Origin: a virus
DNA length: 64,000 bases
Virus record (IMG/VR): IMGVR_UViG_3300050132_000084
Coordinates: 1 to 64,000 of that record
Strand: one strand, 5' to 3'
Position numbers and translations under genes: made by a program. A model generated the notes under the pieces. It had not been told where the DNA came from and made no database searches. It was given only the letters and a program-made list of their open reading frames with translations. Shown one piece after another: positions 18,694 to 62,580 of the stretch (position 1 is the stretch's first letter; every line of letters begins with the position of its first letter).

Positions 18694-20304
18694 ATGGAAA
18701 TTTTGGGATTTAAAATATCTAAAGCTAAACGCTTTGGACTGGATAGTGATGAAGGGAAAGATCAAATCCCTTCATTCGTCGCACCTATTGATGATAGTGG
18801 TGCTAGTCCTGTATCCAATGGTGGTGGCTATTATGGGAGTTACTTAGATTTTGACGGTACTGCTAAATCTGAACTAGAATTAATTGCAAGGTATCGGGAT
18901 GCTGCATTGTATCCCGATACCGATAATGCTATCGAAGAAATCTGTAATGAAGCAATTGGTGCAGAAGATGACGAAACTGTAGTAAAAATATTTTTGGATG
19001 ATGTTGATCAGTCTAAAGCAGTAAAACTAAAGATTGAAGCAGCATTCGAAGAAGTAAAACAGTTATTGGACTTTGAAGCAAAAGCCCATGATATATTCAA
19101 ACGATGGTATATCGATGGTAGAGTTTATTACCATAAAATGACTGACCCAAAGAGTCCACAAAAAGGGATTCAAGAATTACGTTATATTGATCCACGAAAA
19201 ATTAAGAAAATTCGTGAGATTACTAAATCAAAAGATGTCGGTACTGGTATAGAAGTTATCAGCAAAATTAAGGATTATTTCTTATATGCTGAACGTCCAA
19301 TGCAAAAACAAACTGGATATGCCTCACAGTTATTCAATGTGAATGGTGTCAAAATTGATCCAGAAGCTATTTGTTATGTTACTTCTGGACTTATTGACCT
19401 AGAACGTAATATGGTTCTAGGCCATTTACACAAAGCCGTTAAGCCAATTAATATGTTGAAATTGGCTGAAGATGCTATGTTGATATTCCGTTTATCACGT
19501 GCACCATCACGCCGTGTATTCTATATTGACGTTGGTAATCTACCAAAACAAAAGGCTGAACAGTATCTAAAAGATACCATGCAAAGGTATCGTAATAAAA
19601 TAGTTTATGATGCTTCTACAGGTGAAATTCAAGATGATCGTAAGCATATGTCCATGCTGGAAGATTATTGGTTGCCACGGCGTGAAGGTGGTCGTGGTAC
19701 ACAAATCGAGAATCTTGAAGGTATCACTAATACCAACCAAAAAGAAGAAGTTGAATATTACCTGAATCGTGTTTATAGCACTATGAATGTACCAATGTCA
19801 CGTTTGACACAAGGTACAACCATGAATTTTGGTAAGCAAGCAGAAATTACTCAGGATGAATTAAAATTTGCCAAATTTATTGCTAGGCTTCGTAGGAAAT
19901 TTTCAGAAATATTTGGTGATCTACTACGTACTCAGGCTGTATTAACTGGTATATGTTCTGTTGAAGATTGGGATGAATTAATCAAACCATTCATCAAATA
20001 TAATTTTGCACAGGATATCTACTGGAAAGAAGCTAAAGAACTAGAAGTATTCCGTTCACGAATCGAATTATTAACTTCCATTCAACCATTTGTAGGAACT
20101 TACTATTCAAAAGAATTCGTCAAGAAAAATATATTAAAACAAACTGACGATGAAATAGATGAAATGCAACAGGAAATGGCTGGTGAACAGGAAGAACAAG
20201 TAAGGGATGCACAATTTAAAGGACAGATAGATGGTGCACAACAAGCTGCCACTATGGAAATGCTGCCACAAGAACCAACAGCCGCCCCTGCCAAGAAGAA
20301 ATAA
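18694..20304 (+). CDS. g20: Portal vertex protein, T4 gp20 homologue
   Basis: FKRWYIDGRVYYHKMTDPKSPQKGIQELRYIDPR, LHKAVKPINMLKLAEDAMLIFRLSRAPSRRVFYIDVGN and MSMLEDYWLPRREG closely parallel T4 gp20. Confidence 0.95.
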   Translation: MEILGFKISKAKRFGLDSDEGKDQIPSFVAPIDDSGASPVSNGGGYYGSYLDFDGTAKSELELIARYRDAALYPDTDNAIEEICNEAIGAEDDETVVKIFLDDVDQSKAVKLKIEAAFEEVKQLLDFEAKAHDIFKRWYIDGRVYYHKMTDPKSPQKGIQELRYIDPRKIKKIREITKSKDVGTGIEVISKIKDYFLYAERPMQKQTGYASQLFNVNGVKIDPEAICYVTSGLIDLERNMVLGHLHKAVKPINMLKLAEDAMLIFRLSRAPSRRVFYIDVGNLPKQKAEQYLKDTMQRYRNKIVYDASTGEIQDDRKHMSMLEDYWLPRREGGRGTQIENLEGITNTNQKEEVEYYLNRVYSTMNVPMSRLTQGTTMNFGKQAEITQDELKFAKFIARLRRKFSEIFGDLLRTQAVLTGICSVEDWDELIKPFIKYNFAQDIYWKEAKELEVFRSRIELLTSIQPFVGTYYSKEFVKKNILKQTDDEIDEMQQEMAGEQEEQVRDAQFKGQIDGAQQAATMEMLPQEPTAAPAKKK

Positions 20305-20339: not shown

Positions 20340-20861
20340 ATGTCCAGTTTACTAGAATATACAATAGAAAAAATTAAAGGTGGTGTCAGAATAAAACACT
20401 ACGGCAAGATCGTGCACACTGCCAAGGATTCTGTAGAAGCACAAAAGTGGATTGAAAGATTACCACATGGTGCAATAGGACGTAATGTTCGTGAATCCGA
20501 AGAAGGAAAGTATGGTGATGTTGAATATGCTGATACCAAGAATAAGAAATATCCAGTAGACACTGAAAAACATATTCGTGCAGCATGGGATTATATTCAT
20601 GTTGGTAAAAATGCCGCTAATGAAACAGATGTAGATGGTATTAAGAAAAATATTATTAAAGCATGGAAAGAAAAGATTGATAAATCTGGCCCACCAGAAG
20701 CTAGTAATGAAGGAAATAAAATGTCAGAAAATTTCATTGATGCAACATTAAAACAAGATTATCTAGGTGCTGAAGCAGCATTCAAAGAAATGATGGCTTC
20801 CAATGTAGCACAATATCTAGAACAACGTAAACAAGAACTAGCATCTGAAATGTCTAGATAA
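20340..20861 (+). CDS. Hypothetical prohead-associated protein (between portal and protease)
   Basis: Lies in the T4 gene 67/68 interval. Contains YGDVEYADTKNKKYPVDTEKHIRAAWDYI, a motif I recall from phage scaffold/protease-associated proteins (DUF6582-like). Confidence 0.6.
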   Translation: MSSLLEYTIEKIKGGVRIKHYGKIVHTAKDSVEAQKWIERLPHGAIGRNVRESEEGKYGDVEYADTKNKKYPVDTEKHIRAAWDYIHVGKNAANETDVDGIKKNIIKAWKEKIDKSGPPEASNEGNKMSENFIDATLKQDYLGAEAAFKEMMASNVAQYLEQRKQELASEMSR

Positions 20862-21519: not shown

Positions 21520-22173
21520 ATGAAATTTCTAACAGAAATATATGATGATGTAGAAGTGCTTGTTGAGGGTGCAGGAGAACACAAGCAACTTTTCATTCAT
21601 GGTATCCATGCTCAGGCAGAATTGGTTAATCGTAATAAACGAAATTATTCTAAATCTGTCTTAGAAAATGCTATCACAAAATACAATAAAGACTTTGTTA
21701 TGACCAATCGTGCATTGGGTGAATTGAATCACCCTGCACGGATGTCAGTTGATCCTGAACATGTTTCACACAGGATTTGTGAACTACGATGGAATGGCAA
21801 TGATGTCATCGGTAAATCACTGATTCTCAATACCCCTAAAGGTAACATTATTAAGGGATTGCTAGAAGGTGGAACTAAACTTGGTGTATCTACTCGTGGT
21901 GCAGGAAGTATCACATTAAAAGAGGGTGTTTCACATGTTGGTAGTGATTTCGTATTATCTACTATTGACGCTGTTTTAGACCCTTCAGGAATTTCGTGTT
22001 GGGTAGACCCATTAATGGAATCTGCTGATTGGATATTTGAATCAGGTGTATGGAAGATTTCTGATTTGGAACAAGCACAGAAAACCATTAAAGAAGCATC
22101 TAGCATTGATTTAAAGAAGAATTTTCTAGAATTATGGGAAAAATTTGTTGGAAATTTACAAAATATGCGTTAA
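21520..22173 (+). CDS. g21: Prohead core protease, T4 gp21 homologue
   Basis: GIHAQAELVNRNKRNYSKSVLENA...ALGELNHPARMSVDP...WNGNDVIGK...GVSTRGAGS parallels T4 gp21 GIFMQAEVVNRNKRLYPKRILEKA...ALGELNHPPRANVDP...WKGNDVYGR...GVSSRGLGS. Confidence 0.95.
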   Translation: MKFLTEIYDDVEVLVEGAGEHKQLFIHGIHAQAELVNRNKRNYSKSVLENAITKYNKDFVMTNRALGELNHPARMSVDPEHVSHRICELRWNGNDVIGKSLILNTPKGNIIKGLLEGGTKLGVSTRGAGSITLKEGVSHVGSDFVLSTIDAVLDPSGISCWVDPLMESADWIFESGVWKISDLEQAQKTIKEASSIDLKKNFLELWEKFVGNLQNMR

Positions 22174-22244: not shown

Positions 22245-23597
22245 ATGTCAGTTGAACAAGCAATCCGCAAGATGTTGAATGAACGTGCCACACTACCAAT
22301 TGGTGCTAGCGTAAACTATGGTGATATGTCTCAACCAAAGCAAGGTAATTCACAAGAAACTCCTTATGATGAAGAAGACGAAAATGCACCGGGTACGACT
22401 ACTGCAAAGAAAATAGGTACTACTGGATTGCCAATTGGTCAATCTGCAACTTCAGGTGATGGTGCACAACCACCACAAGGTTCCAGCGGCAATGTAATGC
22501 CAGAAACACCAGCACCTACAGGAACTAATCTTGGTGCTGATAGTAATGGACAACCACCACAAGGTGCTAGTGGAATCAAAGCACCGGGATTGTTTGATTC
22601 AGTACAAATTACCGGAAAAGATGGTAAAACAGCAAAAATGACTGGTGCTGATCTAGCTGAAGCATTCACTAAGAAACACTTTATCGCAACTGCTGAACTA
22701 TTGAATTCTATTAGTGACCATAAGCAACGTAATGCTATTGGTGCTAAACATATCGAAATGTTCAAGAAAGATAATCCACGTTTCGATGAAGGTAAGTTCA
22801 AGAAAGCCGCTGGTATGGATGCAGCATCGCAGCAAGCTGAATCAGTTCGTACTACAGAATTAAAAGAGAGTATTGCAGCACTATTCACAGGTCAAGAAAA
22901 TCTAGCTGAAGGTTTCCTAGATAAAGCTACTTCACTATTCGAAGCTGCTGTTATTGGTCGTGTTAATGCTGAAATGATCAAGGTTAATGAAGAATTGGAA
23001 GCAATGGCCGAACAAGAATTGACAACATTGAAAACAGCTTTATCAGAACAAGTCAATTCTTACGCTACACAAATGGTTAACGTTTGGATTAAAGAAAACC
23101 AACTAGCTATTGATCAAGGACTGAAACAAGAAGTATCAGAATCATTCATGAGTGGTCTACGCAATTTGTTTGCAGAACACTATATTGATGTTCCAGAAAA
23201 TAAAGTTGATGTACTAGAATCACTTACAAAAGAACTAGAAACATCAAAGAAACGAATCAATGAAGAAGCTAATAAAACATTGAAAGTTCAAAAAGAATTA
23301 ACCGACCTGAAGAAGCAAGCAGTCGTTGCCGAAGCATCCAAGGGTATGACAGCAGTTGATGCAGATCGACTTCTGACGCTGGTTGAGGGTATAGAGTTCG
23401 ATTCACCAGAACTCTATACCGAAAAAGTTGCAGTAATCAAAGAGTCACACTTTAAGAAAACTGCTAAAAAATCAGCGGAAGTAATCTTGGCTGAGTCTAC
23501 AGGCGGTAACGCAACTGAAGAAGTGGTTGATCCATCTATTCAGCGTGTTGTTGCAGCCCTAAATCGTGGCAATTCTGGTAATGTTTTTACTAACTAA
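22245..23597 (+). CDS. g22: Prohead scaffolding protein, T4 gp22-position homologue
   Basis: Synteny between g21 and g23; low-complexity N-terminal part followed by a long charged coiled-coil region. Confidence 0.75.
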   Translation: MSVEQAIRKMLNERATLPIGASVNYGDMSQPKQGNSQETPYDEEDENAPGTTTAKKIGTTGLPIGQSATSGDGAQPPQGSSGNVMPETPAPTGTNLGADSNGQPPQGASGIKAPGLFDSVQITGKDGKTAKMTGADLAEAFTKKHFIATAELLNSISDHKQRNAIGAKHIEMFKKDNPRFDEGKFKKAAGMDAASQQAESVRTTELKESIAALFTGQENLAEGFLDKATSLFEAAVIGRVNAEMIKVNEELEAMAEQELTTLKTALSEQVNSYATQMVNVWIKENQLAIDQGLKQEVSESFMSGLRNLFAEHYIDVPENKVDVLESLTKELETSKKRINEEANKTLKVQKELTDLKKQAVVAEASKGMTAVDADRLLTLVEGIEFDSPELYTEKVAVIKESHFKKTAKKSAEVILAESTGGNATEEVVDPSIQRVVAALNRGNSGNVFTN

Positions 23598-23639: not shown

Positions 23640-24965
23640 ATGGCATACGTATCACAAGAAGTAACAAATAAGTGGAAACCAGTTCTTGATGCAGAAGGTA
23701 CTGTACCAATCCGCGATGCACACAAACGTGCAGTTCTAACCAAACTTCTAGAGAATCAAGTACAAGAATCATCAAAAGAAGGTGAAATGTTGTTCGAAAA
23801 TGGTACTGGTGATGTTTCAACCAATGCTATTGGTTCAGCACCAGATACTGGCGGTACAGCTAAATTTGATCCACTGTTGATCAGTCTAGTTCGCCGTTCA
23901 CAACCTAACTTGATGGCATACGATATCGCTGGTGTGCAACCAATGTCAGGCCCAACTGGTTTGATCTTCTGTATGAAGTCCAACTACGGTGCAAACCAAG
24001 CTGCTGCAACACGTACCGAAGCACTGTTTAACGAAGCTAATACCGCGTTCGCAGGTACTGGTTCACAAGCTGGTAGCAATCCGGGTACAGGTACATACAC
24101 TCGTGGTACTGGTATGACTACTACCGCTGCCGAACTATTAGGCACAACTGGTGGTAATACTTTCAACGAAATGAACTTCACAATTGAAAAAACAACTGTG
24201 ACTGCTCAAACTCGTGCATTGAAAGCATCATACACCCTAGAATTGGCTCAAGACTTGAAAGCAGTTCATGGTCTAGATGCTGAAGGTGAATTGTCCAATA
24301 TTCTTTCACAAGAAATTGGCTTTGAACTAAACCGCGAACTTGTTCGTACCGTGTATCAAGTTGCACAAACTGGTGCACAATCAACCGTAACTCCGGGTAC
24401 ATTTGACTTGAACATCGATTCAAGTGGTCGTTGGTCTGTTGAACGTTTCAAGGGACTATTGTTCCAAATTGAACGTGATGCTAATGCTGTTGGTCAATTG
24501 ACACGTCGCGGTAAAGGTAATATCCTAATCACTTCTTCAGACGTAGCTAGTGCATTGGCCTTGGCTGGTGTTCTAAACTATGCACCAGCACTTCAAGCTG
24601 GTACTAATCTGGAAGTTGATGATACTGGCAATACATTCGCTGGTATCCTGAATGGTAAGATCAAGGTTTATATTGATCCATATTCAGCAAATATTTCCGC
24701 TGCTTCACAATTCTATGTAGTTGGCTATAAAGGCCAATCAGCATATGATGCAGGTATCTTCTATTGCCCATATGTCCCACTACAAATGTTACGTGCAGTT
24801 GATCCTGAGTCATTCCAACCAAAGATCGCGTTCAAGAGTCGTTATGGTATGATTGCTAACCCATTCGTTATTAATCCGGGTGCAAGCAATGCGTCAGACG
24901 GTAGCAACTTTACCGCAGGACTTAATCAATACTACAGAAAAGTACAAGTACTCAATCTTTTGTAA
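23640..24965 (+). CDS. g23: Major capsid protein, T4 gp23 homologue
   Basis: NKWKPVLD, VRRSQPNLMAYDIAGVQPMSGPTG, LKASYTLELAQDLKAVHGLDAEGELS, KGLLFQIE and YKGQSAYDAGIFYCPYVPL...FQPKIAFKSRYG closely parallel T4 gp23. Confidence 0.97.
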   Translation: MAYVSQEVTNKWKPVLDAEGTVPIRDAHKRAVLTKLLENQVQESSKEGEMLFENGTGDVSTNAIGSAPDTGGTAKFDPLLISLVRRSQPNLMAYDIAGVQPMSGPTGLIFCMKSNYGANQAAATRTEALFNEANTAFAGTGSQAGSNPGTGTYTRGTGMTTTAAELLGTTGGNTFNEMNFTIEKTTVTAQTRALKASYTLELAQDLKAVHGLDAEGELSNILSQEIGFELNRELVRTVYQVAQTGAQSTVTPGTFDLNIDSSGRWSVERFKGLLFQIERDANAVGQLTRRGKGNILITSSDVASALALAGVLNYAPALQAGTNLEVDDTGNTFAGILNGKIKVYIDPYSANISAASQFYVVGYKGQSAYDAGIFYCPYVPLQMLRAVDPESFQPKIAFKSRYGMIANPFVINPGASNASDGSNFTAGLNQYYRKVQVLNLL

Positions 24966-48449: not shown

Positions 48450-48527
48450 CTCTGTGTCGTACAGTCTGGTCTAGTATACGTGCTTTGGGAGCATGGGACA
48501 TTGGTTCAAATCCAGTCGCGGAGACCA
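48450..48527 (+). tRNA. tRNA-Pro (anticodon UGG), CCA encoded
   Basis: Hand fold: acceptor ctctgtg/cgcggag (two G-U pairs), D stem gtac/gtat, anticodon stem cgtgc/gcatg, loop ttTGGga, T arm attgg-ttcaaat-ccagt, A73 and C1-G72 as in bacterial tRNA-Pro. Confidence 0.8.
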
Positions 48528-48543
48528 AGAATTTAGCAGCAAT

Positions 48544-48629
48544 GCCGGGTTCGCATAGTGGGATTGCGCTTGACTTGTAATCAAGAAGGGGAAACCCTAA
48601 GTGGTGTTCGATTCACCAATCCGGCACCA
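48544..48629 (+). tRNA. Class-II-shaped tRNA (3-bp D stem, 16-nt variable arm) with anticodon UGU (Thr), CCA encoded
   Basis: Hand fold: acceptor gccgggt/atccggc, D stem gca/tgc, perfect anticodon stem cttga/tcaag, loop ctTGTaa, variable arm aaggggaaaccctaag (ggg/ccc stem), T arm tggtg-ttcgatt-cacca, A73. Confidence 0.7.
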
Positions 48630-48668
48630 TAATAGGGAGCCAAGTTTTATATATTATGAGGAAACCGT

Positions 48669-48866
48669 ATGGAACAGCAGCAACAATATATTCATGATTT
48701 CAGTAAATGTGTTGGACAAACACAACAATTTGACTGTCCAGTTAAATCCGAATGTAAACGTTTTACTGAACAATCAGTACAACCACCAGCATGGCAACCA
48801 TGGTTCCTTATAATTCCTTATAATCAACAAAAAAATTCATGTGAATTGAAGGTAAATAATGGCTGA
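48669..48866 (+). CDS. Cys-rich small protein (paralogue A)
   Basis: C-x8-C-x4-C-KRFT...PWF...C pattern shared with the next gene. Confidence 0.5.
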   Translation: MEQQQQYIHDFSKCVGQTQQFDCPVKSECKRFTEQSVQPPAWQPWFLIIPYNQQKNSCELKVNNG

Positions 48867-49212
48867 TATCAGTATGTGTTCCGGTGAAGGGTGTGATATT
48901 AAACTTTCTTGTCATCGCCATACAGCAGTAAAGAATCCTTATTTTCAGGCTTATTTTCAGGTTCCACCAATTGTAGGGAAAAACTGTGATCAATTTTGGT
49001 CAAACATAGGTTACAATAAAGATAAGGAATTAAAGATGCCAAGACTTCAATCGATTAGTGAATTAACACCAGAACAACAAGATAAGATTCGTAATAATTT
49101 GAATGAATATTACGTGTCAATTGATCCAAGGTCATATGAAAAATATATTCGTGTGTATGGTATTGATATAAGCTATAAATCAATCGTTGAATCACAACTT
49201 CTAGAGGAGTAA
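48859..49212 (+). CDS. Cys-rich protein (paralogue B)
   Basis: MCSGEGCDIKLSCHRHT...YFQ.PP...C pattern; overlaps the upstream gene by 8 nt. Confidence 0.55.
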   Translation: MADISMCSGEGCDIKLSCHRHTAVKNPYFQAYFQVPPIVGKNCDQFWSNIGYNKDKELKMPRLQSISELTPEQQDKIRNNLNEYYVSIDPRSYEKYIRVYGIDISYKSIVESQLLEE

Positions 49213-49214
49213 AC

Positions 49215-49472
49215 ATGAAAAAACTATTTCTACTTGCTGTACTGTTGTTTTCTATTAATGTAATGGCACATCCTGTTGTCATTGTTAGTCCAATCGTGAT
49301 TGCACCACCTGTTGTGGTTTATCCACCATTCCCACCTGTGTATTTGCAACCACAACCATATTACGTTGAACCAGAATTCATTGTGACTATGGTGTTCGAT
49401 GAACGTTGCCGGTGCAATATAGAACATCGTGTTCGTAATCCAAATTTCCTCAAACGTATTCAGCGTCGTTAA
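49215..49472 (+). CDS. Secreted Pro/Val-rich small protein
   Basis: Signal peptide MKKLFLLAVLLFSINVMA, then HPVVIVSPIVIAPPVVVYPPFPPVYLQPQPYY. Confidence 0.6.
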   Translation: MKKLFLLAVLLFSINVMAHPVVIVSPIVIAPPVVVYPPFPPVYLQPQPYYVEPEFIVTMVFDERCRCNIEHRVRNPNFLKRIQRR

Positions 49473-49473
49473 T

Positions 49474-49662
49474 ATGAAATCATTAATCAACTGGTTTCCA
49501 CAGTGGAAATATATTTGGATTGTAATTCAGCACATGTTGGTGTGTGCTTGGGTTATGGCGTTCGTGGTTTTTCTTCTTGTCACAGCCAAATATTATGTGC
49601 CATTATTTCTATTAATTATGATACCAACTATTATTGTTATTCTGGCGAAGTTGTTTTCATAG
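49474..49662 (+). CDS. Small membrane protein
   Basis: Two TM helices. The ATG at 49474, right after the upstream stop, is preferred over the track start at 49429. Confidence 0.5.
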   Translation: MKSLINWFPQWKYIWIVIQHMLVCAWVMAFVVFLLVTAKYYVPLFLLIMIPTIIVILAKLFS

Positions 49663-49673
49663 AGTATTTTAGT

Positions 49674-49748
49674 TTGACCATAACTTAATGGTTAAAGTCG
49701 TGGATTGTGATTCCGCTTATGTGAGTTCGATTCTCACTGGTCAACCCA
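49674..49748 (+). tRNA. tRNA-His (anticodon GUG), CCA encoded, no encoded G-1
   Basis: Hand fold: acceptor ttgacca/tggtcaa, D stem actt/aagt, anticodon stem gtgga/tccgc, loop ttGTGat, T arm gtgag-ttcgatt-ctcac, C73. The base at -1 is T. Confidence 0.8.
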
Positions 49749-57341: not shown

Positions 57342-57575
57342 ATGACAACGTTAAAAGAGGAATTTGTAGCAGAAGTAGAAAAAATTGAAGCAGATGTTAA
57401 GTCTGTTGTTACTAAGATTGAATCTGAATTCAAAAAAGCACCTGTAGTGGCTGCACCTGTAGTCGCTGCACCTGTAGTCGCTGCACCTGTAGTCGCTGCA
57501 CCTGTAGTGGCTGCACCTGTAGTGGCTGCACCTGTAGTCGCTGCACCTGTAGTCGCTGCACCAGCTAAAGTATAA
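57342..57575 (+). CDS. Small protein with (APVVA)x8 tail
   Basis: N-terminal helical segment EEFVAEVEKIEADVKSVVTKIESEFKK followed by eight APVVA repeats. Confidence 0.6.
   Translation: MTTLKEEFVAEVEKIEADVKSVVTKIESEFKKAPVVAAPVVAAPVVAAPVVAAPVVAAPVVAAPVVAAPVVAAPAKV
57438..57557 (+). repeat. 15-bp tandem repeat x8 (gcacctgtagtSgct), coding
   Basis: Eight consecutive units differing only at one G/C position. Confidence 0.95.
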
Positions 57576-57587
57576 AGGAATACTATC

Positions 57588-57788
57588 ATGGCACTAAAAT
57601 GGGATCATTTTACATTTCCAACATGGAAAACCGTTGTAAATAAAGTTGAAGCAGAAGTAACAAAAGTTGAAGGTGAAATTAAGGCTGAATTTGAAAAGCC
57701 TGTAGTTAAAACTGCAACCGCTGTTGCACCAGAACCAGCACCTGTAGCCGCACCAGCAGTTGCAGTAAATACTACCGTAGCAAAATAA
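57588..57788 (+). CDS. Paralogue of 57342 without the expanded repeat
   Basis: VNKVEAEVTKVEGEIKAEFEKPVV parallels VAEVEKIEADVKSVVTKIESEFKKAPVV; has an Ala/Pro/Val-rich tail. Confidence 0.6.
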   Translation: MALKWDHFTFPTWKTVVNKVEAEVTKVEGEIKAEFEKPVVKTATAVAPEPAPVAAPAVAVNTTVAK

Positions 57789-57803: not shown

Positions 57804-59414
57804 ATGGCAAATTGGTCATACACAACACCACCTAACTACTATATTGTTGGTGATAATTTTCAGGCAGCATTGACAGCAACAAATATGGGGTGGACTAATA
57901 ATACTTCATTCCCACCAGAAGTTGTTATTCCTGTTGCCAATCTTAATGTACTTCAACAAGCGGCATTGGCTGTTCCTACTTTCACAGTGACACCACCAAC
58001 TACACCGTTAACTGGCACAGTCACTACAACAGGTGAAGTAGCATTATCAGGAACAATTACAGATTTTCCTGCTGTCACTTTAACTGGCACTGTTTCTGCG
58101 TTTGCACCCGGTACACTTACAGGTACTATTTCAACATTCGCACCAGCTACTTTGACAGGTACAATCACCACATCAAGTGTAACTACAGCGTTGTCTGGTG
58201 TTGGTACATCATTCACTACACAATTACAAATTGGTTCAACTGTAAGTTATAATGGCGTTGTTCTAGGAACTATTACATCAGTTACTAACAATACAACTGC
58301 CGCCTTCACAGCAAATGCAACTTCCACTCAGACATCAGTAGTTAATGCTACGACTTCAGGTTCAACTACAATTACAGGTTCTGGTACATCTTTCACCACT
58401 CAGTTGAACGCTGGTTCTATCCTGTTTTTTGATGGTACACCAATTGGTACTGTGGCTTCTGTCACAAACAACACAACAGCAGTGTTGACCGCAATTCCAT
58501 TAATTGGTCAATCTGGACTTACATATACTACATCAGGAACTGTAAATTTGGTTGGTTCTGGAACAGCATTTGCAACTCAATTACAAGTTGGTTCAACTGT
58601 TTCTGTTGGTGGTACATTGATTGGTACTATCGCTGGAATCACTAGCAATACCGCTGCAACATTCTACCAAATTGCAACCACTTCTGAATCTGCTGCTACT
58701 GCTACTACAGCCGGTTCTGTAAACTTGGTTGGTGCTGGTACATCATTTACAACTCAATTGCAAGTAGGTTCCACAATTAATGTTGGTGCAACATTAATTG
58801 GTACTATCGCTTCAATTGCTAGTAATACTTTGGCTACATTTGTGGCAGTTCCAACTACATTGGAATCTGGTGCAACTGCCACTGCCGGGGGTAGTGCTGC
58901 TGGTTCAACAACTGTAACGGGTTCTGGTACATCATTCACCACTCAAACTTTCGTTGGTGCTGAACTTTATTACGGTAACGTTAACTTGGGTGTTGTTAAC
59001 TCAATCACAAATAACACTACTTTGGTATTGTCTGCTGCTGCTTTGGCTAACGTTACTGCCGGAACTGTGAGTACATCACAATCATTTGGTACTGGTGCAG
59101 TTATGAAATTCATTGTTGTTCCAAGTGCACCAGTGAACGTTGCTGGAAATCCTACGATTAACGTTTCCGTTGGTGCAAATAATACGGTTCTAACTTATAA
59201 TCCATTTGATTCTACTTCTACCGCATTGTCATTTGAATACACTGTTTTGAATACCGATACAGCTACATCAGGTAACGTTGTGTTGACAGGATCAATGAAT
59301 TTGCCAGTTGGTGCTGGTGTGGCTAAACAATTAGTTGGTGGAAATGAATTTGCTGTACCATTAGCAAACTTAACATTCACTGTTCCTAGCACAATCGGTA
59401 CAATCGTAACCTAA
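57804..59414 (+). CDS. Virion protein built from about five ~58-aa GSGTSFTTQL...G.IG.I.S.T.NT modules
   Basis: Five consecutive modules. The first is about 85% identical at nucleotide level over the stretch I aligned by eye to part of the g18 insertion domain. Confidence 0.7.
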   Translation: MANWSYTTPPNYYIVGDNFQAALTATNMGWTNNTSFPPEVVIPVANLNVLQQAALAVPTFTVTPPTTPLTGTVTTTGEVALSGTITDFPAVTLTGTVSAFAPGTLTGTISTFAPATLTGTITTSSVTTALSGVGTSFTTQLQIGSTVSYNGVVLGTITSVTNNTTAAFTANATSTQTSVVNATTSGSTTITGSGTSFTTQLNAGSILFFDGTPIGTVASVTNNTTAVLTAIPLIGQSGLTYTTSGTVNLVGSGTAFATQLQVGSTVSVGGTLIGTIAGITSNTAATFYQIATTSESAATATTAGSVNLVGAGTSFTTQLQVGSTINVGATLIGTIASIASNTLATFVAVPTTLESGATATAGGSAAGSTTVTGSGTSFTTQTFVGAELYYGNVNLGVVNSITNNTTLVLSAAALANVTAGTVSTSQSFGTGAVMKFIVVPSAPVNVAGNPTINVSVGANNTVLTYNPFDSTSTALSFEYTVLNTDTATSGNVVLTGSMNLPVGAGVAKQLVGGNEFAVPLANLTFTVPSTIGTIVT

Positions 59415-59864: not shown

Positions 59865-60242
59865 ATGAAGATAACAAAAGATAATTTTGATGTATTAGCA
59901 ATTAAGGCACATCAGTGTATAGGGTGTGAAGGTATAGAAGATATCCTTGGTGATATAGCAAAATTTACACATATAAATAAGCTATTCATGAAATATATTT
60001 CTGGTGATGAATTAAATGAACGATTGATTATGAATCACATTGTTACATTATTCAATGTGTTTGGTAGTGAAACAATCCGATTCTTGTTTTTCAAAATAAA
60101 ACCAGAATATTATAAAGCATTACTTCCATTTTTGGCGTATCTGAATAGACTTGATAAAACCGTTGAAATAAAAAATAAAATGGTTTCAATAAGTAAAATA
60201 GGATATGATGAATATGTTCTAGAAAGACTTCAGCAAATATGA
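59865..60242 (+). CDS. Hypothetical protein
   Basis: The ATG at 59865 just after the upstream stop is preferred over the track start at 59826. Confidence 0.55.
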   Translation: MKITKDNFDVLAIKAHQCIGCEGIEDILGDIAKFTHINKLFMKYISGDELNERLIMNHIVTLFNVFGSETIRFLFFKIKPEYYKALLPFLAYLNRLDKTVEIKNKMVSISKIGYDEYVLERLQQI

Positions 60243-60427
60243 AAACATTCGAACAATTTAAAAAATACATTGCTGAAGATGGTGATGGCGGTGGTACAGT
60301 TGGTGTCACTGTTAATCCAGCACCCGGTGGTTCCACAGAGAATACCAATTCAGTCATTAATCCAAATAATCAAGGTCTAGGCAAAAAGAAGAAAATTGTC
60401 AAACGTCCTGTTCCAAATGTAATGTAA
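60239..60427 (+). CDS. CTS-tagged small protein with basic C-terminus (internal-protein-like)
   Basis: Leader MKTFEQFKKYIAE (T4 IPIII: MKTYQEFIAE), then a Gly-rich linker and the KKKKIVKRP tail. Confidence 0.6.
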   Translation: MKTFEQFKKYIAEDGDGGGTVGVTVNPAPGGSTENTNSVINPNNQGLGKKKKIVKRPVPNVM

Positions 60428-60428
60428 G

Positions 60429-61157
60429 ATGAAAACATTTTCAAAATTTTATGAAGAATTCTCTAGTGGTCTTGAATATCACGATGAACTAAATCCTAAG
60501 ATTTGGGATGGTGATAAACTACGGCCAGAAGTAAAAATCGCATTGGATGTGGTTACACAAAATTTCATCAAGTTCCTAAAAATTGATTCATCAAAAATTT
60601 CAGATGTTGTCCTAACAGGTTCATCAGCAAATTTCAATTATACTGGTCAATCTGATCTAGATATTCATGTTATTGTCAATTTTGATCCAAATGAAAATAA
60701 TTCCATTGGACTTCATGCCGGTTATTCATTCAATACAGCCAAGACTCTATATAACCTGAGACACAAGATCACTATTCATGGCTACCCTGTGGAAGCATAT
60801 GTTCAACCTGAATCAGAACACTTTAACGGTAATGCCGGGGTGTATTCACTTAGAAATCAAATGTGGGTTCAACATCCACAAAAACAATCTGTGGACTTTG
60901 GTTCAAAAGAAATTCAACGTAAAGCACAACCAATCATTGATCAAATAAATTATATTGTTGATAATAATATCGAAAATACAAAAATGATTAAAGATTTGAA
61001 AGCCAAAGTTAAACAACTTCGGGCTGTTGGTATGGAAGATAAAAGTGAATTTTCTATCGAGAATAGTGCATTCAAGGCCATTCGTAATGGTGGTTATCTT
61101 GAAAAACTTTCCAATTTTGCATCAAAAGTTGAAGATAAACTACTCAGCTTAGAATAA
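60429..61157 (+). CDS. CTS-tagged nucleotidyltransferase-fold protein (Pol-beta superfamily)
   Basis: Leader MKTFSKFYEE; NTase signature LTGSSANFNYTGQSDLDIHVIV (G-S...D-x-D) and the downstream acidic HGYPVEAYV. Confidence 0.6.
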   Translation: MKTFSKFYEEFSSGLEYHDELNPKIWDGDKLRPEVKIALDVVTQNFIKFLKIDSSKISDVVLTGSSANFNYTGQSDLDIHVIVNFDPNENNSIGLHAGYSFNTAKTLYNLRHKITIHGYPVEAYVQPESEHFNGNAGVYSLRNQMWVQHPQKQSVDFGSKEIQRKAQPIIDQINYIVDNNIENTKMIKDLKAKVKQLRAVGMEDKSEFSIENSAFKAIRNGGYLEKLSNFASKVEDKLLSLE

Positions 61158-61172
61158 AGTTCTTGAGTATGG

Positions 61173-61201
61173 TTGCATAATGTAACTAACTGTGGTATAA
61201 T
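61173..61201 (+). promoter_or_regulatory. Early promoter (TTGCAT-N17-TATAAT, TGTGGTATAAT box)
   Basis: ttgcat at 61173-61178; tgtggtataat at 61191-61201. Confidence 0.6.
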
Positions 61202-61232
61202 AAGGACTTCGTAAATGGAGTCCTTATTTTAT
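61199..61232 (+). terminator. Rho-independent terminator overlapping the -10 box
   Basis: 10-bp stem aataaggact pairs with agtccttatt, followed by tttt. It would terminate read-through from the NTase gene. Confidence 0.6.
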
Positions 61233-61314
61233 GACGTTTCGATTTTACTAAGTATATTAATGCGAATTAATAATTCGCGTCTGTCGCGTATCTTGAAAAT
61301 ACCACAGACCCTAA

Positions 61315-61527: not shown

Positions 61528-62580
61528 ATGGCTTTGTGGATAGACCAAAAATACGTTAACCTTTTGTCGATGTATCTTGATAAATTCAAAAAAATTGACA
61601 ATGGGCTTTATAATTTCCGTTGTCCTATTTGTGGAGATAGTCAAAAAAACAAATCTAAATGTCGCGGATATCTTTATACAAAATCACAAGCAATTTTCTA
61701 CTCATGTAAAAATTGCGATGCGGGAACTACGCTAGGAAAATTCTTAGAACATGTTTCATCATCACTAGCAGCAGAATATCGCCGTGAATTGTATCTGGAC
61801 AAATCAGAAGACTCACCACAACGTTCATTGAATGATGGTGCAGAATCTACACTAGTCATACCAAAAGTGGCTTCACGCTTCATTAAAGCCAAACCAAAGG
61901 AAATCACTGATCCATTCAGCGGTAAGCTGGAATGCCTAATATCCTTGGCAAAAGACCACCCTGCTACCCAATATATTAGGCATCGTAAAATACCAGATTC
62001 ACAATTACACAAGTTGTACTACATTCCAGAAATTCGTAATATAAGCAATATTCCCGGCTTCAGAAAATATGAAGAACGAATCAAAGGATATGAACCACGA
62101 ATAGTGTTGCCATATTTCAACATTGATGGAAAATTGACAGGTGTAACATGCCGTGCCATTGAGGATCATCCACTGCGATATGTGTCATTGAAAGTTGTAG
62201 AAGATGAACCATTGATATTTGGTATGCTAGATATTGACATGAACAAGCCAATATTTGTCACAGAGGGTGGCTTTGATTCAATGTTCATTGAAAATTGTAT
62301 TGCTGTCGGCGGTACTGGCATGGGGAAGTTAGAATCACTTGGAATTGACCGTGATAAATTAACCATCATATTTGATAATCAACCAAGGAACAAAGTATTG
62401 GTTAATATCATTGATAAGACTATACGAAATGGATATCGTGTGTTAATATGGAACAGTCGCACAAAAGGTAAAGATATTAATGAAATGGTTTTAAATGGTG
62501 AAAATTATCTTGACCAGATCGAAAATAGATGTTATAATGGTTTACAAGCTAAAATTGAATTTAACCAATGGAGAAAATAA
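61528..62580 (+). CDS. g61: DNA primase, T4 gp61 homologue
   Basis: Zn-ribbon FRCPICGDSQKNKSKCRGYLY...CKNC and Toprim motifs VTEGGFDSMF and IIFDNQPRN. Confidence 0.88.
   Translation: MALWIDQKYVNLLSMYLDKFKKIDNGLYNFRCPICGDSQKNKSKCRGYLYTKSQAIFYSCKNCDAGTTLGKFLEHVSSSLAAEYRRELYLDKSEDSPQRSLNDGAESTLVIPKVASRFIKAKPKEITDPFSGKLECLISLAKDHPATQYIRHRKIPDSQLHKLYYIPEIRNISNIPGFRKYEERIKGYEPRIVLPYFNIDGKLTGVTCRAIEDHPLRYVSLKVVEDEPLIFGMLDIDMNKPIFVTEGGFDSMFIENCIAVGGTGMGKLESLGIDRDKLTIIFDNQPRNKVLVNIIDKTIRNGYRVLIWNSRTKGKDINEMVLNGENYLDQIENRCYNGLQAKIEFNQWRK

Follow-up and report, generated by a model that had tools for sequence, protein, structure and literature searches.

Proteins that a phage injects together with its genome act before any phage gene is expressed, and so they form the first line of host takeover and counter-defence. 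Few of them have a known activity, the main examples being Alt and IPI of phage T4, and Alt-like ADP-ribosyltransferases are textbook cargo of the T4 head. Our subject is a two-gene cassette in a 64,000-nucleotide stretch of virus DNA (positions 1 to 64,000 of IMG/VR record IMGVR_UViG_3300050132_000084, called the window throughout), which profile matches to T4-type head genes identify as a T4-like myovirus of 36.6% G+C. We think that the cassette probably specifies head cargo, namely a 242-residue nucleotidyltransferase (NTase) that would serve as an injected, host-directed effector and a small basic protein that would accompany it.

In T4, Alt is a host-modifying enzyme that is loaded into the prohead core by a propeptide, cleaved by gp21 and ejected at infection (PMC9026906). 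The capsid-targeting sequence (CTS) of T4 is the first 10 residues of IPIII, which are sufficient; targeting is affected by residues 4 and 7, and processing by residues 8 and 10 (PMC9026906). As with the T4 internal proteins, a leader of about ten residues (MKT-aromatic-x-x-F...E) stands in the window on otherwise unrelated proteins of one genome. The elements on which this comparison rests are listed below, the two open reading frames (ORFs) of the cassette lying on the + strand at 60239 and 60429, just where the preliminary description of this DNA had placed them. A slash marks a cleavage point here and elsewhere.

60239 to 60427, + strand: small-protein gene, an ORF for 62 residues (MKTFEQFKKYIAED...GKKKKIVKRPVPNVM)
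60239 to 60277, + strand: leader of the small protein, MKTFEQFKKYIAE, ending in the canonical I-x-E cleavage motif IAE/D
60429 to 61157, + strand: NTase gene, an ORF for 242 residues beginning MKTFSKFYEEFSSG..., in phrog_36119 and without a specific Pfam family
60429 to 60458, + strand: CTS-type leader of the NTase, MKTFSKFYEE (F4, F7, Y8, E10)
60618 to 60671, + strand: catalytic motif GSSANFNYTGQSDLDIHV, residues 64-81 (G64-S65, then D76-x-D78-x-H80)
60783 to 60803, + strand: YPVEAYV, residues 119-125, a beta-strand with the third catalytic carboxylate, E122
60906 to 61145, + strand: C-terminal four-helix domain, residues 160-239, with invariant R198, N212, K216 and R219
28259 to 31902, + strand: first CTS locus, with ORFs 28259, 30365 and 31018, all MKTF, which define the genome's own leader
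21520 to 22173, + strand: gp21-type prohead core serine protease (Peptidase_S77) by family matches, the enzyme expected to remove leaders
22245 to 23597, + strand: gp22-type scaffolding core protein by family matches, the expected docking partner of CTS leaders

The ends of the 62-residue protein are also given as MKTFEQFKKYIAEDGDGGG...GLGKKKKIVKRPVPNVM, and the start of the 242-residue protein as MKTFSKFYEEFSSGLEYHDELNPKIW....

By its sequence and its predicted structure the 26-kDa product of the second gene is a catalytically intact, acidic, two-domain nucleotidyltransferase of the Pol-beta type, and it is very likely an active one. It scores 23.9 bits against Pfam NTP_transf_2 (cut-off 21) and belongs to phrog_36119 (2e-55), which is annotated 'unknown function'. 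Alignments of 37 and of 52 homologues at 30-70% identity both leave G64, S75, D76, D78, H80, E122, S140, W146, P150, R198, N212, K216 and R219 invariant. The pattern hG[GS] with [DE]h[DE]h 9-13 residues further on is present as G64-S65 ... D76-L-D78-I, with eleven residues from G64 to D76, and the full G-S / D-x-D / E catalytic set is conserved along with a basic cluster in the C-terminal helices. This bears out the NTase signature that the preliminary description had read from the letters, including YPVEAYV with its invariant E122 and the conservation of the G-S / D-x-D motif among homologues. The four-helix segment is the most conserved part outside the catalytic core and is the probable binding site of the nucleoside triphosphate (NTP) or the substrate, on the model of the two-domain enzymes of the kanamycin nucleotidyltransferase type. 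When the 52 homologues are taken individually, 37 match NTP_transf_2 and smaller numbers match Polbeta, MTPAP-like palm, Adenyl_cycl_N or SidM_N, a scatter that assigns the family to the Pol-beta superfamily and not to a subfamily.

The AlphaFold model (pLDDT 91.8, pTM 0.82) has an NTase core of the alpha-beta-alpha-beta-alpha-beta fold (helix 33-50, strand 57-63, strand 77-83, helix 97-111 and strand 119-127 with E122) followed by the four-helix domain, with pLDDT of about 60 at residues 1-10 and above 90 in the core. Foldseek matches in the PDB are almost all NTases, with no close structure among them, so no NTase subfamily can be assigned. Of the structural check proposed in the preliminary description, the NTase topology is modelled with confidence, and the matches to particular clades are weak. 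Among predicted viral structures, strong matches were confined to uncharacterised proteins, many of greater length, from uncultured tailed phages. With a median pI of 5.2 the NTase domain is acidic, and in this it resembles an enzyme, not a DNA-binding filler.

Both products of the cassette carry a leader that recurs in the window. Among 92 non-overlapping + strand ORFs of at least 60 residues, four start with MKTF outright, and in a fifth (30365) MKTF begins at an ATG five codons inside the ORF. These five MKTF starts (28259, 30365, 31018, 60239 and 60429) compare with 0.02 expected from composition or 0.07 from position-specific frequencies, so the shared leader is not due to chance; at the DNA level all five have ATGAAAACATT in common. 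To the NTase leader and MKTFEQFKKYIAE of the small protein the first CTS locus adds MKTFKQFVFE, MKTFKQFRE and MKTFNQLRE. Aligned with the T4 CTS (reference MKTYQEFIAE), the NTase leader is identical at positions 1-3, 7 and 10 and conservative at position 4, and both cassette leaders have F4 and F7 at the key positions. The capsid-targeting leader proposed in the preliminary description fits the T4 register (F4, F7, E10), and gp21 and gp22 are encoded in the same window. All positions that are invariant in the family lie downstream of the NTase leader, the first being L21. The small-protein leader ends in a canonical [LI]-x-E site and the other leaders of the window end in FRE, VFE and LRE. The gp21 protease has 10 [LI]xE motifs where 3.0 are expected and the gp22 scaffold 11 where 5.4 are, a strong enrichment, as it should be for proteins degraded in head maturation. 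The major capsid protein gp23 has LFE at residues 51-53, likely its propeptide cleavage site.

At the first CTS locus ORF 28259 is ADP-ribosyltransferase-like (PF03496, 24.8 bits) and ORF 31018 is an Alt-like ADP-ribosyltransferase, the Alt-like pair being recognised through PF03496 and phrog_802. ORF 30365 (217 residues) has no family match whatever, and NCBIfam gave zero matches for all five leader-bearing proteins. ORF 28259 also holds 2.3 tandem copies of a 39-bp unit, which encode ERQIPFDICEHGD twice, and a gp19-like tail-tube gene (29076) and a 147-residue ORF lie between the MKTF ORFs of this locus.

That the NTase is packaged in the virion we consider likely, on the strength of its leader and of relatives in cultured phages. 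ORF156 of the Synechococcus phage S-CREM2 is a homologue (35% identity over the full length, E 1e-49). It was found as a 'hypothetical protein' by mass spectrometry in CsCl-purified virions (PMC10665884 Table 3), with 6 unique peptides and 15.2% coverage, next to 4 peptides for the prohead protease and 7 for the scaffold. The neighbours ORF154 and ORF155 were likewise detected in virions, as was ORF160 four genes downstream (PMC10665884). Presence of the window NTase in virions is thus indicated by homology. Read from the genome, the N-termini of three S-CREM2 enzymes detected in virions are MKDFDSFLEE (SAM hydrolase), VKRFDAFLTE (kinase) and MKNFSSFLTE (cytidylyltransferase), which are variants of one T4-CTS-like leader, M-K-x-F-x-x-F-L-x-E. 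A comparable motif, LRFASFMAE, stands in the Cas9-like ORF12 some 17 residues past the annotated start, so that of the six virion enzymes called 'non-structural' three have clear leaders and a fourth a similar motif. The accessible passages make no mention of this shared leader (PMC10665884). ORF13 (MKDLHSFLTE) and ORF136 (MQTFSMFFSE) have the same leader type, a comparison that concerns the leaders only and takes no virion status from Table 3, and ORF156 itself starts MKKLISE/L.

In S-CRM01, another Synechococcus phage, the NTase g125 is the last of five consecutive leader-bearing genes, g129-g125 (L001:1923-4699), which adjoin the kinase gene g130 and lie upstream of a primase gene, as in the window. 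A putative S-CRM01 kinase has been reported as a virion protein (PMC10665884), and g130 is probably this kinase. The homologue in Caulobacter phage Cr30 starts MRKFSQLLE/D. The cyanomyovirus virion enzymes resemble the window NTase in being non-structural and, in S-CREM2, in having the same leader type (PMC10665884), whereas the virion 'cytidylyltransferases' belong to the HIGH superfamily and have a different fold. Our literature search turned up no report of a Pol-beta NTase carried as cargo in a phage head. The statement in the preliminary description that it knew of no NTase as injected phage cargo calls for a qualification. NTases of the other, HIGH-type fold (NMNAT/cytidylyltransferase-like) had already been reported in cyanophage virions (PMC10665884), and the present family had itself been detected there without being recognised as one of NTases.

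By analogy with T4, the leader (MKTF-x-x-F...E) would dock both products on the gp22 scaffolding core during prohead assembly, and the gp21-type protease would then remove it, cutting the small protein after E13 and the NTase after E9 or E10. Whether the NTase leader is in fact cleaved is, by the same analogy, an even call. The mature proteins would stay in the DNA-filled head until ejection carries them into the host along with the genome. As infection begins, the NTase would transfer a nucleoside monophosphate (NMP) to a hydroxyl of a host target, most likely a protein. DrrA, MNT-type and antibiotic NTases all nucleotidylylate hydroxyl groups, and the proposed reaction is taken from these nearest relatives. 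It would make the NTase a host-takeover or counter-defence effector like T4 Alt, with nucleotidylylation in place of ADP-ribosylation, and the 49-residue mature form of its basic partner a minimal internal protein accompanying the DNA. The Alt-like proteins of the window bear the same MKTF leader as the NTase. However, the folds of Alt and the NTase are unrelated, Alt ADP-ribosylates from NAD+ where the NTase is predicted to transfer NMP from NTP, and the target of Alt is established as RNA polymerase.

A protein as target, rather than a nucleic acid or a small molecule, is a tentative choice that we rate at somewhat less than even. The Legionella effector DrrA/SidM (GlnE-like) is a delivered enzyme that nucleotidylylates a host protein. 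DrrA is the best sequence match of known structure (E 0.003, with a G-x11-D-x-D core), 3 of the 52 family members match Pfam SidM_N, and both DrrA and the MNT-type NTases align in their catalytic cores with the motif of the window NTase. The DrrA match is nevertheless marginal and spans 67 residues, and the rest of that protein and its delivery by type IV secretion are unrelated. The profile search of PDB sequences returned only DrrA and minimal NTases, at marginal E-values.

The 62-residue protein consists of a CTS-type leader, a middle rich in G, N, P and T that is probably disordered, and a basic KKKKIVKRP tail. Its predicted mature form of 49 residues (4.9 kDa, pI 9.8) is of low complexity and has a conserved NSVINPNNQGLGKKKK core. 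Just two relatives were detectable, both environmental orthologues at 72-78% identity. On one of the contigs (L092, an independent 1-kb contig) the orthologue also directly precedes the NTase orthologue, and the codons of the two small ORFs are 27 identical, 19 synonymous and 12 non-synonymous, a synonymous excess that speaks for purifying selection and thus for a real gene. In another locus (L059) a leader-bearing G/D-rich basic protein of 51 residues precedes the NTase, which hints at a recurring partner. T4 internal proteins are small and basic and are encoded at hypervariable loci, a description that the 62-residue protein fits with its IAE/D site and its mature pI of 9.8. However, homology to T4 internal proteins was not established for its mature part, and at 49 residues it is smaller than any of them (about 8-20 kDa in T4). 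Its likeness to T4 IPI, which counters a restriction system, is one of leader and basic charge only. Most simply, and by analogy, it would be a miniature internal protein that travels with the DNA. What the preliminary description called a classical DNA-associated internal protein keeps its leader and its basic tail, with the DNA association an analogy only. Homology to S-CRM01 g126 and S-CREM2 ORF155 was considered as well and not established (pairwise E 0.011 over low-complexity sequence).

The NTase family is large and is found essentially only in phage sequence. With representatives clustered at 50% identity, it comprises 5,872 clusters when E <= 1e-3 is allowed and 3,020 when E <= 1e-30 is required, and it has at least 589 loci in IMG/VR. 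Among 185,579 species genomes (one genome per species) there are only 29 loci, nearly all in metagenome-assembled, single-cell or uncultured-bin assemblies, and these are therefore probably phage contigs. A strict CTS pattern is present in 26 of the 68 IMG/VR homologues with a resolvable start (MHNFSEFIAE, MKTYNGFYKE, MKSFSSFITE, MLNYSNFLTE and MRSYKDFLNE are examples) against 55 of 1,244 background ORFs, counts that are not phylogenetically independent. Roughly 15-25 of these 55 resemble leader-bearing neighbours of the NTase, and about a third are recurring starts of the UvsX type (MDFLKDIVKE) or the MG.LKPIGSEKL type, which are not cargo leaders. Leader-bearing neighbours number four or five in locus L046, three in L022 and two in L054, with leaders alike within a locus. 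The nearest relatives of the window NTase start MKLLSLxEF or MTxLTLxEF, with L-x-E sites. In the closest contigs with long flanks (L004 and L005) there is no other leader-bearing gene within 10 kb on either side, and the gene upstream of the NTase encodes an unrelated protein of 510 residues. On a 197-kb relative (L006) a 300-residue phosphoribosyltransferase (PF00156, 11010-11912) adjoins the NTase and starts MKLSLKEFLEQ, closely resembling the MKLLSLxEF leader of the nearest NTase relatives.

The window NTase stands alone, and what fusions contribute is evidence at the level of the family. Members are fused to Phage_lysozyme (L046), PG_binding_1 (L077 and L085), SleB-type Hydrolase_2 (P0035) and, in proteins of 1,359-1,633 residues, Amidoligase_2 (P0139, P0071 and P0169); the lysozyme or peptidoglycan-binding modules are C-terminal in some members (among L046, L054, L077, L085, L052 and L084). 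By eye, some members also carry a zincin-like HExxH module and some a ParB-like motif (DGxHR), neither of which gave a model match. Three members (P0057, P0058 and P0061) are tandem NTase duplications with both catalytic motifs intact and each copy preceded by [LI]xE-[LF]. Duplicated and fused members may be polyproteins that are cut by the prohead protease. The duplications also suggest that NTases of the family form dimers, and a dimer could have its active site at the interface, as kanamycin nucleotidyltransferase does. The fusions to lysozyme and other typical modules resemble the architecture of injected phage polyvalent proteins. In the survey that first delimited polyvalent proteins, the Pol-beta NTase occurs only in a minimal version, confined to conjugative elements of Firmicutes (PMC5512222).

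Several observations weigh against a packaged, host-directed NTase. The authors of the S-CREM2 study warn that abundant non-virion proteins might co-purify (PMC10665884), and packaging would have to carry over to the window from a single homologue at 35% identity. The NTase leader has F-Y-E or Y-E-E in place of a canonical [LI]-x-E; neither L nor I stands at P3, the residue on which cleavage turns being Y, and T4 genetics has position 8 affecting processing; its targeting is for this reason better supported than its cleavage. A 'hydrophobic-x-E' element is conserved at the N-terminus throughout the family, just ahead of the core, where its role could in part be structural and not that of a cleavage site. 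Depletion of internal [LI]xE motifs is mild (0 against 2.5 expected in the window NTase, observed/expected 0.72 in the family), too mild for us to use it as a signature of exposure to the prohead protease. On the structural side, Foldseek reaches solved structures only with weak scores (E >= 7e-5, TM 0.2-0.3), and the sequence match to the AMPylation domain of Legionella DrrA, the best in the PDB (E 0.003), covers the catalytic core only. Finally, the cassette lies between the gp41 helicase and gp61 primase genes, outside the head module.

A packaged NTase might act on nucleic acid instead of on a protein, protecting the ends of the injected DNA or modifying or repairing RNA or tRNA 3' ends. 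Many Pol-beta NTases are directed at polynucleotides, the poly(A)-polymerase palm model PF22600 gives weak matches in 16 of the 52 members, the co-encoded basic peptide is possibly DNA-associated, and the L006 relative lies about 3 kb from a gene for a T4 Rnl1-type RNA ligase. However, that linkage is non-recurrent, the acidic NTase domain comes with no detected nucleic-acid-binding domain, and the nearest sequence matches of solved structure are protein AMPylators (DrrA and the MNT type). Models of RNA-repair and CCA-adding NTases, including RlaP (PMC7824862), gave no match at E <= 1. We regard an action on nucleic acid as unlikely. Readings of the NTase as RlaP, as a CCA-adding enzyme or as a CD-NTase were each dropped, there being no model match.

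Less likely still is a sub-case of the injected effector, in which a packaged mimic of the MNT antitoxins would (poly)AMPylate HEPN-type RNase toxins of the host and so act as an antitoxin delivered in advance. MntA reportedly neutralises HepT through polyadenylylation. The core of the window NTase has the MNT signature (G-S...S-D-x-D and a later carboxylate) and matches NTP_transf_2, the family of the MntA antitoxin. The MNT type gives the best Pfam, PADLOC and core-level Foldseek matches, the last to the MNT antitoxin 8xeo and the minimal NTase 2rff with probabilities of 0.89-0.98. PADLOC returned only weak matches to small MNT-like NTases (E 2e-4) and no defence or anti-defence family. This similarity is limited to the generic core, though. 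MNTs are single-domain proteins of about 100-130 residues encoded beside a HEPN toxin gene, whereas the window NTase is phage-restricted and has an extra conserved N-terminal segment and a four-helix C-terminal domain, in which inspection of the 52-homologue consensus found no Rx4-6H motif. Its neighbours are DUF7207, the small CTS protein and primase, with no HEPN protein among them.

The NTase might also be a cytoplasmic enzyme that is not packaged at all, for instance a small-molecule NTase of the antibiotic type, with an N-terminus that only resembles a CTS and with carry-over into the S-CREM2 preparation. One GenBank record does label a homologue 'aminoglycoside nucleotidyltransferase', and the whole-chain architecture, an NTase core plus a helical domain in about 250 residues, is like that of the antibiotic NTases (kanamycin nucleotidyltransferase/ANT(4'), AAD(9), LinB and AadA), which are among the best whole-chain Foldseek matches (probability up to 0.94). 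The position of the gene in the replication module and the contamination caveat of the S-CREM2 authors point the same way. These matches have TM of only 0.25-0.32, identity of 8-14% and rmsd above 10 A, however, with no resistance context, and the PDB-sequence profile search gave no antibiotic NTase at E <= 1. An MKTF start has a probability of about 1e-3 or less per gene. CTS-like leaders and clustering with leader-bearing cargo genes recur across the family, three S-CREM2 virion enzymes bear clear leaders and a fourth a similar motif, with ORF154, ORF155 and ORF160 near the NTase also detected, and ejected proteins typically show fusions of the lysozyme and peptidoglycan-binding kind. Taken with these points, a non-packaged enzyme is improbable. 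A packaged enzyme that jams host defence at entry by making, mimicking or depleting a signalling nucleotide (CD-NTase, OAS or Hailong-like) is slightly less probable again. In its favour, the top PDB matches of Foldseek include CdnE, CdnC, CdnB, CdnG, cGAS and Hailong HalB. Against it, these matches are weak (TM 0.2-0.3, 0.2-0.29 for the CD-NTases, rmsd 12-19 A, E 7e-5 to 0.1), and neither a CBASS cyclase in PADLOC nor SMODS or Mab-21 in Pfam was matched.

We return to the injected, host-directed NTase and to the setting of its gene. The remaining features of the head module and of the cassette's surroundings are these.

18694 to 20304: T4-type portal gp20, by family matches
23640 to 24965: major capsid protein gp23, by family matches
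59865 to 60242, + strand: DUF7207 / phrog_407 gene, whose probable true start is the ATG at 59865
59972 to 59979, + strand: TATAAATA, a match to the T4 late-promoter consensus some 260 bp 5' of the cassette; weak evidence
61199 to 61233, + strand: hairpin resembling an intrinsic terminator, with a 12-bp stem, a 6-nt loop and a U-rich tail

The phage has no cultured close relative, as megablast of the locus found no DNA-level match among GenBank phages and its major capsid protein is at most 58% identical to marine cyanomyovirus and pelagimyovirus counterparts. The cassette sits in the replication module amid unconserved ORFs, with DNA polymerase, UvsX and the gp41 helicase upstream and the gp61 primase downstream at 61528. 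The ATG of the small ORF overlaps the stop of the DUF7207 gene (ATGA), which makes it probable that these two genes are co-transcribed, and the ATG of the NTase lies one base past the stop codon of the small ORF. Read by eye from N-termini, DUF7207-like genes also occur near the NTase in S-CREM2 (ORF159) and S-CRM01 (g122). The hairpin 40 bp past the NTase stop (-21 kcal/mol, z = -5.2, with 0 of 200 shuffles equally stable) is terminator-like and appears to close the cassette. Rfam and tRNA scans of the locus were empty. There are 4 copies of TATAAATA in the window where 7 are expected, another of them standing just 5' of the head-core gene at 20340; a count at or below chance, with no enrichment, does not demonstrate late transcription.

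A near-consensus sigma-70 promoter with an extended -10 (TTGCAT, 17 nt, TGgTATAAT) was seen by eye at 61173-61201, a site that the promoter scan did not list, and its -10 box abuts the 5' arm of the hairpin. Transcripts from this promoter would miss part of the hairpin arm and could read through into the primase gene, unlike those from further upstream, which would stop at the hairpin.

Other features of the region stand apart from the cassette. Three tRNA genes (Pro-TGG, Thr-TGT and His-GTG) lie at 48450-49748, directly 5' of the DNA polymerase gene. The 77-residue ORF at 57342-57575 contains a 15-bp unit repeated 8.3 times (57438-57562, 97% identical) that encodes (PVVAA)n, and it has the motif K.E.E.K.. 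in common with the 66-residue ORF at 57588-57788; neither has a family match. The ORF at 57804-59414 encodes 536 residues rich in Thr, Gly and Ser, in units of about 59 residues (SGTSFTTQLQVGSTV...GTIASI.SNT), with a 177-bp tandem repeat detected in the DNA. Its Pfam matches (MlaD, YajC) look spurious and its match to a tail-fibre PHROG is weak. The protein looks like a fibre or adhesin, though it is encoded in the replication module just 5' of the cassette.

The delivery mode proposed here is a known one and the cargo is new. The family has no characterised member. These findings extend the T4 capsid-targeting rule to T4-like phages of the cyanophage and pelagiphage type, and they present a large, unannotated family of intact NTases as recurrent head cargo and as a candidate for a new injected chemistry, nucleotidylylation. 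Tractable carriers of homologues exist in Caulobacter phage Cr30 and in the Synechococcus phages S-CREM2 and S-CRM01. A broader proposal, which we put forward as speculative, is that this phage-only family consists of widespread effectors of the onset of infection, preloaded into the capsid by a CTS in T4-like phages or as a module of polyvalent proteins, that nucleotidylylate a host protein. If this is true, the nucleotidylylated protein could be a HEPN-type or other abortive-infection toxin, as for MntA, or a core host machine, as for Alt, and AMPylation or NMPylation would join the repertoire of enzymatic activities that phages inject into their hosts.

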